This document shows, in pieces, positions 1,720-7,260 of a stretch of 10,352 bases of DNA. The DNA lies in the IMG/VR virus record IMGVR_UViG_2695420596_000008, positions 1 through 10,352 of that record. One strand, written 5' to 3'. This DNA is from a virus. Its lineage: Duplodnaviria > Heunggongvirae > Uroviricota > Caudoviricetes. The number at the start of each line of letters is the position of its first letter. The stretch's first letter is position 1. The notes under the pieces are model-generated. The model searched no databases. It was not told the origin of the DNA and saw only the letters and a list, made by a program, of their open reading frames with translations. The translations under genes and the position numbers were made by a program.

Positions 1720-2322
1720 ATGAGCTATTTTCTGCGCAAAAAATGGATGGTAAATTTGTCCGGGGCAGGAAAAATTTTATGGACGCTAAACATGAAAAAA
1801 GATTCGTATCCTTATTTGATTTGCATGACAGTTTCAGGCCTGATCTTTATTTTCCTTTTCTTCTGGTGGCGGGCAGATATTTACAGGGTCACGTTTCTTA
1901 ATCAGAGTATATCCCACTATTACATTCTGTTTAGCATGGGAATAGCTTTTCTGTTATCTCTGTTTTGGGTTAAGAAGGGGATAGTAAAACAAAGCGGCTG
2001 GAAGAGTCTGTCAGCATACCTTAAGGTTTATGCAGGGATGTGCATATTTGCTGGATTTTTTCTGATTATACCCCTTACAACACTAACTTATTTTTTGCCT
2101 GGAGAGACATCGTCTTATGTTGCACCGTATCGGTATACTTCCGGTAGTTCAAAAAGTTGTTCTGGAGCTGAGGTGGATGACCCCGATCTACATGAGAATA
2201 TTCGCATTTGCTATCCGTATGGCAATTATGAGTACGATAATATTATCTATGTTGAAAAGAAAATTAATACATTAGGTGCGGTAGTAACATATGCACAGAC
2301 CGCGCGTGATGATACTGAATGA
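1720..2322 (+). CDS. Hypothetical integral membrane protein (about 3 predicted TM helices, about 75-aa soluble C-terminal domain); accessory 'moron' gene replacing ea8.5/ea22; start uncertain (alternative ATGs at 1747 and 1792)
   Basis: 200-aa ORF on the strand opposite to all flanking early-left genes; hydrophobic stretches LICMTVSGLIFIFLFFWW, YYILFSMGIAFLLSLFWV, MCIFAGFFLIIPLTTLTYFL; visibly AT-rich compared with flanking lambda-like DNA; followed by a hairpin terminator; no convincing SD at any candidate start. Confidence 0.5.
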   Translation: MSYFLRKKWMVNLSGAGKILWTLNMKKDSYPYLICMTVSGLIFIFLFFWWRADIYRVTFLNQSISHYYILFSMGIAFLLSLFWVKKGIVKQSGWKSLSAYLKVYAGMCIFAGFFLIIPLTTLTYFLPGETSSYVAPYRYTSGSSKSCSGAEVDDPDLHENIRICYPYGNYEYDNIIYVEKKINTLGAVVTYAQTARDDTE

Positions 2323-2390: not shown

Positions 2391-2532
2391 CTGGTATTAA
2401 TATTTCGCTTTACGATCGATTTTTATCTGATGATATCATGCGGTTTTCATATACTGACTTACTGTCTTTTCTCCGTTAGCGATTTTCTCCTGCTCAGCGA
2501 TGATTTTATCTTTGGCTTCTAGTTAATTTCGC

Positions 2533-2754
2533 TCACTTCGAACCTCTCTGTTTACTGATAAGTTCCAGATCCTCCTGGCAACTTGCACAAGTCCGACAAC
2601 CCTGAACGGCCAGGCGTCTTCGCTCATCTATGGGATCGCCACACTCACAACAATGAGTGGCAGATATAGCCTGGTGGTTCAGGCGGCGCATTTTTATTGC
2701 TGTGTTGCGCTGTAATTCTTCAATTTCTGATGCTGAATCAATGATGTCTGCCAT
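2533..2754 (-). CDS. orf73: TraR/DksA-family C4 zinc-finger protein (lambda Orf73-like)
   Basis: 73-aa ORF with CxxC-(17)-CxxC motif (CCECGDPIDERRRLAVQGCRTCASC) typical of TraR/DksA C4 zinc fingers; position between the ea22 remnant and orf61 as in lambda. Confidence 0.8.
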   Translation of the reverse strand: MADIIDSASEIEELQRNTAIKMRRLNHQAISATHCCECGDPIDERRRLAVQGCRTCASCQEDLELISKQRGSK

Positions 2755-2852
2755 CTTCCATTAATCCCTGAATTGTTGGTTAATACGCTTGAGGGTGAAT
2801 GCGAACAATAAAAAAGGAGCCTGTAGCTCCCTGATGATTTTGCTTTTCATGC

Positions 2853-3134
2853 TCACCGTTCCTTAAAGACGCCGTTTAACATGCCGATCGCCAGGCTTAA
2901 ATGAGTCGGTGTGAATCCCATCAGCGTTACCGTTTCGCGGTGCTTCTTCAGTACGCTACGGCAAATGTCATCGACGTTTTTATCCGGAAACTGCTGTCTG
3001 GCTTTTTTGATTTCAGAATTAGCCTGACGGGCAATGCTGCGAAGGGCGTTTTCTTGCTGAGGTGTCACTGAACAAGCCCCATGTCGGCAAGCATAAGCAC
3101 ACAGAATATGAAGCCCGCTGCCAGAAAAATGCAT
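2853..3134 (-). CDS. Hypothetical protein, lambda orf61-region homologue with a different reading-frame extent (93 aa here)
   Basis: ORF between orf73 and orf63; shares MHFSGSGLHILCAYACRHG..TPQQENALRSIARQANSEIKK with lambda Orf61 as recalled, then continues in frame through a T6/A6 homopolymer (3004-3009) for about 49 more codons. Confidence 0.5.
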   Translation of the reverse strand: MHFSGSGLHILCAYACRHGACSVTPQQENALRSIARQANSEIKKARQQFPDKNVDDICRSVLKKHRETVTLMGFTPTHLSLAIGMLNGVFKER

Positions 3135-3144
3135 TCAGTGGTTG

Positions 3145-3336
3145 TCATACCTGGTCTCTCTCATCTGCTTCTGCTTTCGCCACCATCATTTCCAGCTTTT
3201 GTGAAAGGGATGTGGCTAACGTATGAAATTCTTCGTCTGTTTCTACTGGTATTGGCACAAACCTGACTCCAATTTGAGCAAGGCTATGTGCCATCTCAAT
3301 GCTCGTTCTTAACTCAACAGGAGATGCTTTGTGCAT
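3145..3336 (-). CDS. orf63: Hypothetical protein, lambda Orf63 homologue
   Basis: 63-aa ORF, same length and position as lambda orf63, 28-nt overlap with orf60a exactly as in lambda. Confidence 0.75.
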   Translation of the reverse strand: MHKASPVELRTSIEMAHSLAQIGVRFVPIPVETDEEFHTLATSLSQKLEMMVAKAEADERDQV

Positions 3337-3491
3337 ACAGCCCCTCGTTTATTATTTATCTCCTCAGCCAGCCGCTGGGCTTTCAGTGGATTTTGGATAA
3401 CAGAAAGGTCGGGAAATACCCAGCCTCGCTTTGTAACGGAGTAGACGAAAGTGATCGCACCTACCCGGATATTATCGTGAGGATGCTTCAT
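3309..3491 (-). CDS. orf60a: Hypothetical protein, lambda Orf60a homologue
   Basis: 60 aa from [27 protein letters not shown]...; ATGA start/stop overlap with exo as in lambda (the track's 62-aa version starts two codons upstream). Confidence 0.75.
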
Positions 3492-4168
3492 CGCCATTGC
3501 TCCCCAAATACAAAACCAATTTCAGCCAGTGCCTCGTCCATTTTTTCGATGAACTCCGGCACCATCTCGTCAAAACCCGCCATGTACTTTTCATCCCGCT
3601 CAACCACGACATAATGCAGTCCTTCACGCTTCATACGCGGGTCATAGTTGGCAAAGTACCAGGCATCTTTTCGCGTCACCCACATGCTGTACTGCACCTG
3701 GGCCATGTAAGCTGACTTTATGGCCTCGAAACCACCGAGCCGGAACTTCATGAAATCCCGGGAGGTAAACGGGCATTTCAGTTCAAGGCCGTTGCCGTCA
3801 CTGCATAAACCATCTGGAGAGCAGGCGGTACGCATACTTTCGTCGCGATAGATGATCGGTGATTCAGTAACATTCACGCCGGAAGTGAACTCAAACAGGG
3901 CTCTGGCGTCGTTCTCGTACTGTTTTCCCCAGGCCAGCGCTTTAGCGTTAACTTCCGGAGCCACACCGGTGCAAACCTCAGCAAGCAGGGTGTGGAAGTA
4001 GGACATTTTCATGTCAGGCCACTTTTTTCCGGAGCGGGGTTTTGCTATTACGTTATGAACTTCTGAAGCTGTGATGACGCCGAGCCGTAATTTGTGCCAC
4101 GCATCATCCCCCTGTTCGACAGCTCTCACGTCGATCCCGGTACGCTGCAGGATAATGTCCGGTGTCAT
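3488..4168 (-). CDS. exo: Lambda exonuclease (Red alpha)
   Basis: 226-aa translation [65 protein letters not shown]... matches lambda Exo; 4-nt overlap with bet. Confidence 0.97.
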
Positions 4169-4950
4169 GCTGCCACCTTCTGCTCAGTGGCTTTCTGTTT
4201 CAGGAATCCAAGAGCTTTCACTGCTTCGGCCTGTGTCAGTTCTGACGATGCGCGAATGTCGCGGCGAAATATCTGGGAACAGAGCGGCAATAAGTCGTCA
4301 TCCCATGTTTTATCCAGGGCGATTAGCAGAGTGTTAATCTCCTGCATGGTTTCATCGTTAACCGGAGTGATGTCGCGTTCCGGCTGGCGTTCTGCAGTGT
4401 ATGCAGTATTTTCGACAATGCGCTCGGCTTCATCCTTGTCATAGATACCAGCAAATCCGAAGGCCAGACGGGCACACTGAATCATAGCTTTATGCCGTAA
4501 CATCCGTTTAGGATGCGACTGCCACGGCCCCGTGATTTCTCTGCCTTCGCGGGTTTTGAATGGTTCGCGGCGGCATTCATCCATCCATTCGGTAACGCAG
4601 ATCGGATGATTACGGTCCTTGCGGTAAATCCGGCATGTACAGGATTCATTGTCCTGCTCAAAGTCCATGCCATCAAACTGCTGGTTTTCATTGATGATGC
4701 GGGACCAGCCATCAACGCCCACCACCGGAACGATGCCGTTCTGCTTATCAGGGAAGGCGTAAATTTCTTTCGTCCACGGATTAAGGCCGTACTGGTTGGC
4801 GACGATCAACAATGCGATGAACTGCGCATCGCTGGCATCGCCTTTAAATGCCGTCTGGCGAAGAGTGGTGATCAGTTCCTGTGGGTCGACAGAATCCATG
4901 CCGACACGTTCAGCCAGCTTCCCTGCCAGCGTTGCGAGTGCTGTACTCAT
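4165..4950 (-). CDS. bet: Red beta single-strand annealing protein
   Basis: 261-aa translation [66 protein letters not shown]... matches lambda Bet. Confidence 0.97.
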
Positions 4951-4955
4951 CCGTT

Positions 4956-5372
4956 TTATACCTCTGAATCAATATCAACCTGATGGTGAGCAATGGTTTC
5001 AACCATGTACCGGATGTGTTCTGCCATGCGCTCCTGAAACTCAACATCGTCATCAAACGCACGGGTAATGGCTTTTTTGCTGGCCCCGTGGCGTTGCAAA
5101 TGACCGATGCATAGCGATTCAAACAGGTGCTGGGGCAGGCCTTTTTCCATGTCGTCTGCCAGTTCTGCCTCTTTCTCTTCACGGGCTATCTGCTGGTAGT
5201 GACGCGCCCAGCTCTGAGCCTCAAGACGATCCTGAATGTAATAAGCGTTCATGGCCGAACTCCTGAAATAGCTGTGAAAATATCGCCCGCGAAATGCCGG
5301 GCTGATTAGGAAAACAGGAAAGGGGGTTAGTGAATGCTTTTGCTTGATCTCAGTTTCAGTATTAATATCCAT
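4956..5372 (-). CDS. gam: Gam, RecBCD inhibitor (138-aa long form; internal Met-41 gives GamS)
   Basis: Translation [138 protein letters not shown] matches lambda Gam. Confidence 0.95.
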
Positions 5373-5470
5373 TTTTTATAAGCGTCGACGGCCTCACGAA
5401 ACATCTTTTCATCGCCAATAAAAGTGGCGATAGTGAATTTAGTCTGGATAGCCATAAGTGTTTGATCCAT
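5327..5470 (-). CDS. kil: Kil (host-killing / FtsZ-inhibiting small protein), 47 aa
   Basis: C-terminal 47 aa of the 89-aa track ORF ([47 protein letters not shown]) equals lambda Kil as recalled; 32-nt overlap with cIII as in lambda. Confidence 0.8.
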
Positions 5471-5603
5471 TTTTTGGGACTCCTGGCTGATTAAGTATGT
5501 CGATAAGGCGTTTCCATCCGTCACGTAATTTACGGGTGATTCGTTCAAGTAAAGATTCGGAAGGGCAGCCAGCAACAGGCCACCCTGCAATGGCATATTG
5601 CAT
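5439..5603 (-). CDS. cIII: CIII (FtsH/HflB inhibitor that stabilises CII), 54 aa
   Basis: Hand translation MQYAIAGWPVAGCPSESLLERITRKLRD...TYGYPD* matches lambda CIII; absent from the ORF track because under 60 aa. Confidence 0.85.
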   Translation of the reverse strand: MQYAIAGWPVAGCPSESLLERITRKLRDGWKRLIDILNQPGVPKNGSNTYGYPD

Positions 5604-5675
5604 GGTGTGCTCCTTATTTATACATAACGAAAAACGCCTCGAGTGAAGCGTTATTGGTATGCGGTAACGCAGCGC

Positions 5676-6044
5676 TCAGGCGGCTTTGATAGTCATATCA
5701 TCTGAATCAAATATTCCTGATGTATCGATATCGGTAATTCTTATTCCTTCGCTACCATCCATTGGAGGCCATCCTTCCTGACCATTTCCATCATTCCAGT
5801 CGAACTCACACACAACACCATATGCATTTAAGTCGCTTGAAATTGCTATAAGCAGAGCATGTTGCGCCAGCATGATTAATACAGCATTTAATACAGAGCC
5901 GTGTTTATTGAGTCGGTATTCAGAGTCTGACCAGAAATTATTAATCTGGTGAAGTTTTTCCTCTGTCATTACGTCATGGTCGATTTCAATTTCTATTGAT
6001 GCTTTCCAGTCGTAATCAATGATGTATTTTTTGATGTTTGACAT
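5676..6044 (-). CDS. ea10: Ea10 (lambda early-left protein, reported ssDNA-binding)
   Basis: 122-aa ORF in the lambda ea10 position, between cIII and the terminator at 6063-6090; flanking DNA is near-identical to lambda as recalled. Confidence 0.75.
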   Translation of the reverse strand: MSNIKKYIIDYDWKASIEIEIDHDVMTEEKLHQINNFWSDSEYRLNKHGSVLNAVLIMLAQHALLIAISSDLNAYGVVCEFDWNDGNGQEGWPPMDGSEGIRITDIDTSGIFDSDDMTIKAA

Positions 6045-6062
6045 CTATTCATATCCTCATAG

Positions 6063-6090
6063 ATAAAAAATTGCCCTCACATCGGAGGGC
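6063..6090 (-). terminator. Rho-independent terminator on minus strand (lambda tL-type) upstream of ea10
   Basis: Minus-strand hairpin gccctc-cgatgt-gagggc (plus 6073-6090) followed by aaTTTTTT (plus A-run 6063-6070). Confidence 0.6.
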
Positions 6091-6204
6091 AAAGAAGATT
6101 TCCAATAATCAGAACAAGTCGGCTCCTGTTTAATTATGAGCGACATTTCTCCGTGTATTCACTCGTTGGAATGAATGCACAGTGCAGTGTTTATTCTGTT
6201 GTTT

Positions 6205-6234
6205 ATGCCAAAAATAAAGGCCGACTATGCGGCC
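6205..6234 (-). terminator. Candidate rho-independent terminator on minus strand after the 149-aa membrane-protein gene
   Basis: Minus-strand hairpin ggccg-catagt-cggcc (plus 6219-6234) followed by TTTATTTTTGG; lies 6 bp past the ORF stop, exactly where lambda homology resumes. Confidence 0.5.
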
Positions 6235-6239
6235 TAAAA

Positions 6240-6689
6240 TTACTTAACCAATGATGCTGCATATTCGATAAGGTAAAGCTTTGGGGCCAGCCAAATTTTT
6301 AACCAAGTCATATTGGTTACTACAGCAATAATAAAACTTACCCACAGAACAAAAACTGCAGCTAATGGTAAGATTAGAAAACTAATCTCACCGTTACTTT
6401 CCCAAATCATAGTCGGTTTGTATTTAGTCTTCCCCTTATCCCATGACCATCCTTCATCATCGAACTTACCAATTTCAACTTTTTGGCACTGTTTCTTCAT
6501 AAACCAGAAAACCAGCGGGATTGTTAAAATGGCTATTAATGTTTTAATCAGACTGTCAACCATATTCCATAGCAGTAACTGATGAACAACATCAGGAATC
6601 TGTGCCTGGCTAAATGAGACAGCCGCGTCTATTCCATTACTGGCTTTTTGCAATAGTTCTATGAGAATCTTATTTGCCTGTTCTTCCAT
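6240..6689 (-). CDS. Hypothetical two-helix membrane protein (149 aa) occupying the lambda ral/sieB slot; possible superinfection-exclusion-type protein
   Basis: ORF with SD GAGGTG upstream; two hydrophobic helices (LIKTLIAILTIPLVFWFM; ISFLILPLAAVFVLWVSFIIAVVT) separated by a charged loop (DDEGWSWDKGKTKYK); flanked on both sides by lambda-like sequence; no resemblance to lambda Ral or SieB as I recall them. Confidence 0.6.
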   Translation of the reverse strand: MEEQANKILIELLQKASNGIDAAVSFSQAQIPDVVHQLLLWNMVDSLIKTLIAILTIPLVFWFMKKQCQKVEIGKFDDEGWSWDKGKTKYKPTMIWESNGEISFLILPLAAVFVLWVSFIIAVVTNMTWLKIWLAPKLYLIEYAASLVK

Positions 6690-6747: not shown

Positions 6748-7020
6748 TTACCTCGCTGTCAGTTGTTTTGATTTCCGGTAGCCTGCCGCGTAAAGAGCTA
6801 CGTTCGGAAGACAAGTTGAACCTTCATATTTTCTGGTCAACGTTGTCAGAGTTATAACTTCTGCTCTCATTGCTGGTTTGCGCTTGCATTGCAAGACCAC
6901 TCGTGAAGGGGTTGGCCTGTGTAGCTTGTCGGAGCTAATCGCCTCCTGACTTTGCAGGTTTGCGCGACGAGCTCTACGGCGAGAAGCTGCGGTGCCTTTA
7001 AATTCTGTTTTTCTGGACAT
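6748..7020 (-). CDS. N: N-type transcription antiterminator (P22 gene 24 / phage 21 N family), 90 aa from ATG at 7020
   Basis: N-terminal arginine-rich motif (KGTAASRRRARRANLQ) and C-terminus ...LPNVALYAAGYRKSKQLTAR closely resembling the P22 gene-24 C-terminus (...LPGVALYAAGHRKSKQITAR) as recalled; SD GGAGG 5 nt before ATG at 7020; the track's 114-aa version starts at an upstream ATG without an RBS. Confidence 0.8.
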   Translation of the reverse strand: MSRKTEFKGTAASRRRARRANLQSQEAISSDKLHRPTPSRVVLQCKRKPAMRAEVITLTTLTRKYEGSTCLPNVALYAAGYRKSKQLTAR

Positions 7021-7118
7021 AGATTCCTCCCGAATAAACTTTGGCGATGCAATCTCGAAGCTCCTCCTGAGACGGTTACTTCGGCATTGCATCCCACAGC
7101 TTATGTGGTTGGGTGATC

Positions 7119-7165
7119 TGGCTTTTCAGCCACGTAGTCGAGTGTTCGACGTTGTTTAAAGAGCC
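7119..7165 (-). promoter_or_regulatory. nutL: boxA (minus ggctcttta, plus 7157-7165), small hairpin (7137-7150), boxB (minus ggcugaaaagcc, plus 7119-7132)
   Basis: boxA-like GCTCTTTA followed by a 5-bp stem with GAAAA pentaloop between pL and N; near-identical in architecture to the nutR candidate at 9317-9362. Confidence 0.65.
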
Positions 7166-7204
7166 TGCCAGTCTGCTCCGTTTGGCTTACAGCGTCCTGC
7201 TGAT

Positions 7205-7260
7205 GAGTTGACTTTATCGAAATGATAAACTGATGGCAATAGCAAAATGATAAATTGTTT
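7205..7260 (-). promoter_or_regulatory. pL promoter with operator oL (candidate): -35 TTGCCA (plus 7234-7239), -10 TAAAGT (plus 7211-7216), 17-bp spacing; operator palindrome TTTATC-N5-GATAAA at 7213-7229 and a degenerate copy near 7237-7253
   Basis: Read directly from sequence; the same -10 hexamer and the same palindrome type occur at the divergent pR side. Confidence 0.5.

Follow-up and report, generated by a model that had tools for sequence, protein, structure and literature searches.

An N/nut antitermination module of the VT2-Sakai type in the early region of a lambdoid Escherichia coli prophage

Judged by sequence, the nearest relatives of the N/nut module considered here are those of phages VT2-Sakai and H-19B/933W. 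The N protein of H-19B is an experimentally proven antiterminator (PMC3526286, PMC4499122), and its C-terminal domain has been described as the RNAP-binding domain (PMC4499122). H-19B nutR contains two hairpins, which were probed with RNase T1; N together with NusA/NusG protects the spacer and boxB, and Rho protects the spacer (PMC3526286). In lambda, the boxB pentaloop extrudes one base and takes up the fold of a GNRA tetraloop, according to the part of PMC12027372 that cites Legault 1998. Homologous nut sites are annotated as 'putative N-utilization leftward' and 'putative N-utilization rightward' in the VT2-Sakai record (AP000422), and nut sites are likewise annotated in the 933W record.

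For H-19B, Neely and Friedman are said to have described, in 2000, a dyad symmetry in the spacer between boxA and boxB. Reportedly, breaking one arm inactivates NUT and compensatory changes restore it, deletion of the dyad has little effect, and boxA and NusB are dispensable. The stem-loop is said to have been named a 'reducer' that brings boxA and boxB together. Searches of the open-access literature found no description of a 'reducer', of 'dyad symmetry' or of the VT2-Sakai nut sites, and boxA consensus strings were not found as text in NusB papers.

We analysed a stretch of 10,352 nucleotides, called the window below, from the early region of a lambdoid E. coli prophage. We conclude, with a probability of roughly 0.9, that it carries an N/nut processive antitermination module in its VT2-Sakai allele, belonging to the H-19B/933W/P22 N family. 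Annotations or publications on identical or sister phages already cover the gene, both nut sites and the spacer hairpin, and the finding thus has small weight as a discovery and its practical value lies in annotation.

The N gene and its two nut sites

The features of the module are collected in Table 1. The N gene starts at ATG 7020, which is preceded by GGGAGGA and is the start given both in AP000422 and by PGAP; read from there, the protein aligns with H-19B N from residue 1. The longer mechanical ORF at 6748-7092 (114 aa) begins too early and was rejected as N on these grounds. The 90-residue protein matched the Pfam profile PF25694 (N_peptide) over its full length (residues 1-90; 111.3 bits, E=3e-32), above the curated cut-off of 27.9, and PHROG 271 ('anti-termination protein N-like'). 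On the same Pfam profile, P22 gp24 scored 152, H-19B N 58 and phage 21 N 22, the last of these below the cut-off, and lambda N gave no match, being recognized by PF11438 (N36) only. A sequence search of the PDB with N returned no match even at E=10.

Table 1. Positions of the N gene, nut sites and associated transcription signals in the window
Feature	Position	Strand	Basis or description
pL-like promoter	7211..7239	-	TTGCCA-17-TAAAGT, promoter scan
Leader start CATCAGCAGGACGC	from 7205	-	conserved, identical to lambda pL leader start
nutL	7165-7119	-	pL leader, between pL-like promoter and N
nutL boxA (GGCUCUUUA)	7157..7165	-	same site is 'putative N-utilization leftward' in VT2-Sakai AP000422
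nutL spacer hairpin GUCGA-ACAC-UCGAC, 5 bp	7137..7150	-	fold; flanks ACAACG, CUACG
nutL boxB UGGCU-GAAA-AGCCA	7119..7132	-	5-bp stem, GNRA tetraloop
N antitermination protein, 90 aa	6748..7020	-	PF25694, phrog_271, identity to VT2-Sakai N
Intrinsic-terminator-like hairpin + T run, pL operon downstream of N	6218..6235	-	terminator scan
Other terminator-like hairpins downstream of N	6092-6071 and 5652-5633	-	terminator scan
nutR	9317-9362	+	between cro and cII
nutR boxA (CGCUCUUUG)	9317..9325	+	identical to site annotated as nutR in VT2-Sakai
nutR spacer hairpin GGAC-AUUC-GUCC, 4 bp	9333..9344	+	identical to H-19B nutR hairpin
nutR boxB UCGCU-GAAA-AGCGA	9349..9362	+	one loop C fewer than H-19B nutR boxB
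tR1-like stretch	9392..9417	+	26 nt identical to AP000422 'putative rho dependent terminator for pR transcript'

The two ends of the protein resemble different phages. [quoted passage not shown] Among the classic three it is most similar to that of phage 21 (10/19 identities; shared KGTA.SR..ARRA.L), followed by lambda (9/19; common core A-x-[ST]-RRR-x-RRA-xx-Q-x-Q) and P22 (7/19); H-19B shares 6/19. The tail (...CLPNVALYAAGYRKSKQLTAR) carries the LP.VA.YAAG[HY]R..K..TAR signature found with an N-terminal ARM in members of the PF25694 family. Its last 19 residues are exactly those of H-19B N, and its last 24 are 79% identical to the tail of P22 gp24 by tblastn, with LP.VALYAAG[HY]RKSKQ[IL]TAR in common; the lambda/21-type C-terminus (...TC.GRQKIK...PLI) is absent. 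Because the ARM is nearest to those of phage 21 and lambda and the C-terminus and Pfam match are of the P22 type, N is, as far as its sequence indicates, a mosaic in which the ARM is 21/lambda-like and the polymerase-binding tail is of the P22/H-19B type. A sequence-only reading of the window had already called a P22 gene-24-like C-terminus and an arginine-rich N-terminal motif, and both calls hold. Its label 'P22/21-type' holds in part: the C-terminus is of the P22 type and the ARM is nearest to phage 21, but the boxB hairpins match neither phage, and phage 21 N itself ends in a lambda-type C-terminus and scores under the PF25694 cut-off.

Both nut sites lie on the transcribed strand at the positions expected of lambdoid nut sites, with boxA ahead of boxB. 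The order is boxA, AACAACG, hairpin, CUACG, boxB in nutL and boxA, UAACAACG, hairpin, CUACG, boxB in nutR; both boxA elements match GCUCUUU, and the boxB stems differ at one pair, G-C in nutL but C-G in nutR. A composite pattern (boxA core, AACAACG, 8-16 nt, CTACGT, S-GCTGAAAAGC-S-AG) matched the window exactly twice, at 7118-7164 on the minus strand and 9318-9363 on the plus strand, where none was expected from 200 shuffles; the boxB half of the pattern alone gave the same two sites, again with none expected by chance. The earlier claim of two matched sites of one layout, with a 4-5-bp hairpin between ACAACG and CUACG, is therefore confirmed, and the boundaries it gave (7119-7165 on the minus strand and 9317-9362) were exact. 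It erred in assigning a GAAAA loop to boxB. Fold and sequence instead give a GAAA loop of 4 nt on a 5-bp U-A-closed stem; the fifth A already belongs to the 3' arm, as its first base, so that a 5-bp stem with a GAAAA loop cannot be drawn.

N is 100% identical to that of VT2-Sakai and to those of many other Stx1/Stx2 and non-Stx lambdoid phages, and the DNA of N plus nutL is 96-98% identical in many Stx and non-Stx lambdoid phages. The Stx1/Stx2 phages of O157 Sakai/Morioka, Nil2, YYZ-2008, 2851, 1717, the PA series and 2G7b group with VT2-Sakai in this module. VT2-Sakai nutR is identical over the annotated 40 nt, and nutL is the same apart from the spacer-hairpin loop (ACAC in the window, CUC in VT2-Sakai). 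By contrast, the flanks differ: the window has H-19B-type cI/cro/cII (97%) and different genes between pL and cI. N and its nut sites thus travel together independently of their flanks, as the sequence-only reading had proposed in describing the module as exchanged as a unit.

H-19B and 933W show the same nut layout (boxA, ACAAYG, spacer hairpin, CUACG, boxB), and their N proteins belong to PF25694 as well. H-19B nutR and the window nutR have one and the same spacer hairpin (GGACAUUCGUCC) and boxB stem, and their boxB loops differ by one base, GACAA in H-19B and GAAA in the window. H-19B N is longer (127 aa compared to 90 aa), and its ARM (...RRRERLKAKALANGV) goes with a GACAA boxB, as in P22, whereas the window ARM (...RRRARRANLQSQ) goes with GAAA. 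The H-19B boxA is degenerate (CGCUAUUU in nutR and none recognizable in nutL), unlike the GCUCUUU of both window sites. We rejected a discrete recombination patch at nutR relative to H-19B; the 8 differences in 9315-9370 do not stand out, as other bins of 60 nt (such as 8984-9043) diverge just as much.

The classic phages are more distant. P22 has an rrn-like boxA (GCUCUUUAAC) and a U-A-closed 5-bp boxB stem, as in the window, but its loop is a GACAA pentaloop and its spacer of about 10 nt has no hairpin. Lambda has the leader start and genome positions in common with the window, and its boxB likewise combines a U-A-closed 5-bp stem with a loop that contains G, A, A and a final A. The window N has another C-terminus and Pfam family and no Trp where lambda has W18. 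Lambda's spacer is shorter and lacks a hairpin, and its boxB loop is a pentaloop, where the window has a genuine 4-nt GNRA loop with no base to extrude. Phage 21 has a boxB with a 7-bp stem and a CUAACC loop.

The boxA-boxB spacer and the folding of nutL

Between boxA and boxB, nutL has a spacer of 24 nt and nutR one of 23 nt, compared to 8-9 nt in lambda. A long spacer with an extra small hairpin had been noted from the sequence alone and is real, but it is not unusual, as had been suggested, being a known feature of H-19B-type nut sites. The architecture likewise agrees with that type, a long spacer with a stem-loop whose structure is conserved rather than its sequence. In predicted folds the nutL spacer hairpin has pair probabilities of 0.87-1.0. 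Without the hairpin (14 nt in nutL, 12 nt in nutR), 10 and 11 nt of spacer are left.

Comparative data support the stem. Among the distinct spacers from IMG/VR, 28/31 form 4-6-bp stems, compared to 6.5% of shuffled spacers; the remaining 3/31 were rejected as family members, since they are chance matches that also have no complementary boxB. The stem occurs in at least 8 different sequences. In an alignment of 45 distinct sites, whose rows were pre-filtered for the stem, the four outer stem pairs are 100% paired and three of the four show double changes (64 cells), and the covariation score is 0.92 compared to 0.20 for shuffles and at most 0.23 for slid controls. The unbiased test is given by the 2x2 tables, in which presence of the stem tracks the independent criterion of boxB complementarity, both in IMG/VR (37/37 with and 0/3 without) and in genomes (24/37 compared to 3/49).

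By homology to its relatives, the window allele would bind RNA, use Nus factors and cause antitermination; the open-access literature yielded no experiment on this N allele. The pL and pR transcripts would carry nutL and nutR, and the N-terminal arginine-rich helix of N would bind boxB, a GAAA tetraloop on a U-A-closed 5-bp stem, while the near-consensus boxA would recruit NusB/S10. Folding of the spacer hairpin would take 12-14 nt out of the linear path between boxA and boxB, in line with the 'reducer' idea for H-19B, so that the effective distance would fall from 23-24 nt to about 10-11 nt, near the 8-9 nt of lambda. The P22/H-19B-type C-terminus of N would bind RNA polymerase, and the modified polymerase would then read through the tR1-like stretch and the terminator-like hairpins downstream of N listed in Table 1. 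The reduced need for host factors described for H-19B (boxA, NusB) may not carry over to the window allele, because its boxA is near consensus and that of H-19B is not.

The single-stranded flanks ACAACG and CUACG suggest that the spacer may be more than a passive distance adjuster. In one alternative, the hairpin and its flanks would form a binding platform for NusA and/or Rho (rut-like), with the hairpin holding ACAACG and CUACG in a fixed geometry. The stem itself is apparently not read, as its sequence varies freely, and deletion of the dyad in H-19B is said to have had little effect. ACAAYG and CUACG recur in every family member recovered, but both motifs were fixed in the search pattern, so that conservation of the flanks is not assessable from these scans. 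In favor of a platform, Rho alone protects G residues in the spacer of H-19B nutR, as does N with NusA/NusG, and NusA and Rho are stated to share the spacer as a binding site (PMC3526286). Given this balance, we regard a platform role as possible, but clearly less probable than not, and favor the distance-reducing role of the hairpin.

The two sites differ in predicted folding. Both hairpins fold in nutR. In nutL, the free-RNA MFE structure instead pairs boxA (GGCUCUUU) with AAAAGCC, comprising the boxB loop and 3' arm, around the spacer hairpin (-14.9 compared to -12.8 kcal/mol for the two-hairpin structure). Because boxA can pair with the 3' arm, the boxB helix is rare in the nutL ensemble (probability 0.02, or ~2%), and the fold of nutL would therefore depend on co-transcriptional order or on protein binding. 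The predicted probability of boxB is much higher elsewhere (0.94 in phiSTEC1589 nutL, 0.84 in H-19B and at least 0.97 in P22 and lambda). This pairing could be a regulatory switch that hides boxB until NusB/S10 bind boxA or N becomes abundant, and its preference in the MFE of both the window and VT2-Sakai nutL would fit such a role. Yet the closely related nutL of phiSTEC1589 lacks the pairing, nutR shows it weakly (boxB probability 0.56), some complementarity is expected from a U/C-rich boxA and an A/G-rich boxB 3' half that are set by their own requirements, and the predictions concern naked RNA at equilibrium. A switch is thus very unlikely, and the modelled boxA:boxB pairing in nutL is probably incidental. 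In nutL, G at boxA position 1 accompanies a G-C pair in the boxB stem, and in nutR C accompanies C-G; we rejected selected boxA:boxB pairing as the reason, since this apparent covariation fails in phiSTEC1589 and g341c. Just after the nutL boxB lies another hairpin, CCACA-UAAGC-UGUGG (7094-7108, minus strand), and the upstream ATG of the 114-aa ORF directly follows its 3' arm; different hairpins occupy the same place in the N leaders of lambda (CAAAGC...GCUUUG) and H-19B (CCAAAG...CUUUGG).

Finally, the reading that the motifs are a chance resemblance and the ORF is no functional N, with which the RefSeq/PGAP name 'hypothetical' would agree, is refuted by the shuffles, in which no pattern matches are expected, by the strong Pfam and PHROG matches, and by well over a hundred sequences of phages and prophages across Enterobacterales in which the module is conserved, with covariation.

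ARM classes and boxB loop classes among relatives

A pattern scan of IMG/VR returned 120 loci, often as two opposite-strand matches 1-3.5 kb apart, as expected for nutL plus nutR. For the 58 contigs that contain an N gene together with both nut sites, we tallied the ARM and the loops. Without exception (58/58), ARM and boxB loop were of matching class at nutL and at nutR: the ARM ...RRRERLKAKALANGV occurred with GACAA pentaloops at both sites in 25/25 contigs, and the ARM ...RRR[AE][RH]RA.LQ... with G[AC]AA tetraloops at both sites in 33/33. The g341c-type N combines an H-19B-like body with a tetraloop-class ARM and has GAAA boxB hairpins, and the loop match therefore follows the ARM and not the rest of the protein. 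A species-level scan of genomes found the tetraloop architecture in Citrobacter, Klebsiella, Enterobacter, Kluyvera and Atlantibacter and also in Pantoea, Mixta, Erwinia, Rahnella and Rouxiella; in the genome-wide pattern scan, 62/97 matches failed structural filters, with many chance matches outside Enterobacterales. One 3.5-kb contig of a 'Segatella copri' MAG (JAJXBQ010000280.1) has the same nutL, N (identical ARM) and nutR; it most likely comes from an Enterobacteriaceae phage and was mis-binned.

Further N/boxB specificity classes occur within the same protein family in SPN9CC and in HK630 and mEpX2. Salmonella phage SPN9CC nutR reads UCGCU-GACAA-GGCGA with a U-G closing pair, and its nutL hairpin differs (GCUC...GAGC). 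The HK620-type N (ARM DDNARNRRRARRQAQ) is accompanied by CCCGC-CGAAAU-GCGGG in nutL as well as nutR, and in HK630 N an HK620-type ARM precedes a phage 21-like middle and a tail of the H-19B type.

In lambda, the extruded loop nucleotide reportedly helps NusA to recognise the N-boxB complex, as Legault and colleagues are said to have found in 1998. It is conceivable, though in our judgement rather unlikely, that the N class with the ARM ...RRR[AE][RH]RA.LQ... (VT2-Sakai/g341c-like) uses a true 4-nt GNRA boxB and assembles its complex without this extruded-base contact, such that a one-base change of the loop (GACAA to GAAA) together with an ARM swap would switch specificity between near-identical nutR sites. 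In the open-access literature, we found no paper that states tetraloop assembly without the extruded-base contact, and neither a genuine GNRA tetraloop boxB for this allele nor the co-segregation of ARM and loop classes was found stated there. The tetraloop boxB and the perfect co-segregation are modest refinements, which older papers may well contain. The 58/58 survey, with two nutR classes whose loops are one base apart, supplies clean natural data on which experiments on N-boxB specificity could draw.

Annotation and prophage setting

The value of recognizing the module is illustrated by the genome of E. coli SLK172 (NZ_CP017631), where RefSeq/PGAP names the identical N (WP_000088203.1) 'hypothetical protein' (locus L134 1249-1718, equal to window 6748-7217) and covers the nutL leader with a pseudo-CDS marked 'frameshifted; internal stop'. 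As N is mislabelled and the leader obscured in this way, recognition of the module corrects the annotation of E. coli genomes that carry it. In the same genome, cro is also labelled 'hypothetical'.

The genes of the window run int and xis, the lambda-like recombination genes exo, bet, gam, kil/cIII and ea10, and then an ORF of 149 aa, N, two small ORFs, cI, cro, cII and the beginning of O. Positions 2521-6228 are 97.7% identical to lambda 30380-34087, in agreement with the lambda-like left arm claimed in the sequence-only reading, and 8204-10201 (cI to O) are 97% identical to the immunity region of H-19B. Window 6700-9500 matches chromosomal prophages in several complete E. coli genomes at 100%, and at least 80% of the stretch from N to nutR is present in 86 complete genomes. 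The prophage may be defective, because O is called frameshifted by RefSeq/PGAP in a genome identical to the window prophage. The terminator scan found 10 candidates compared to 3.4 expected. Across the whole window, an Rfam scan found no nut family; the sole family at gathering score was Lambda_thermo, the cIII translational thermometer (5558-5616, minus strand, 88.5 bits).

Several small ORFs occupy moron-like positions: ORFs of 120 aa (phrog_13858) and 42 aa (phrog_12503) lie within 7483-7989 on the minus strand between cI and pL, where lambda has rexAB, and a hydrophobic ORF of 149 aa (phrog_3054) lies at 6240-6689 on the minus strand between N and ea10. These three gave no Pfam or PADLOC match, and neither did a hydrophobic 200-aa ORF (1720-2322, plus strand) that is encoded between xis and the lambda-like block, on the other strand from the pL operon, in a part of the window without lambda similarity. 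A 73-aa protein at 2533-2754 on the minus strand has a TraR/DksA-type C4 zinc finger (PF01258, E=8e-9).
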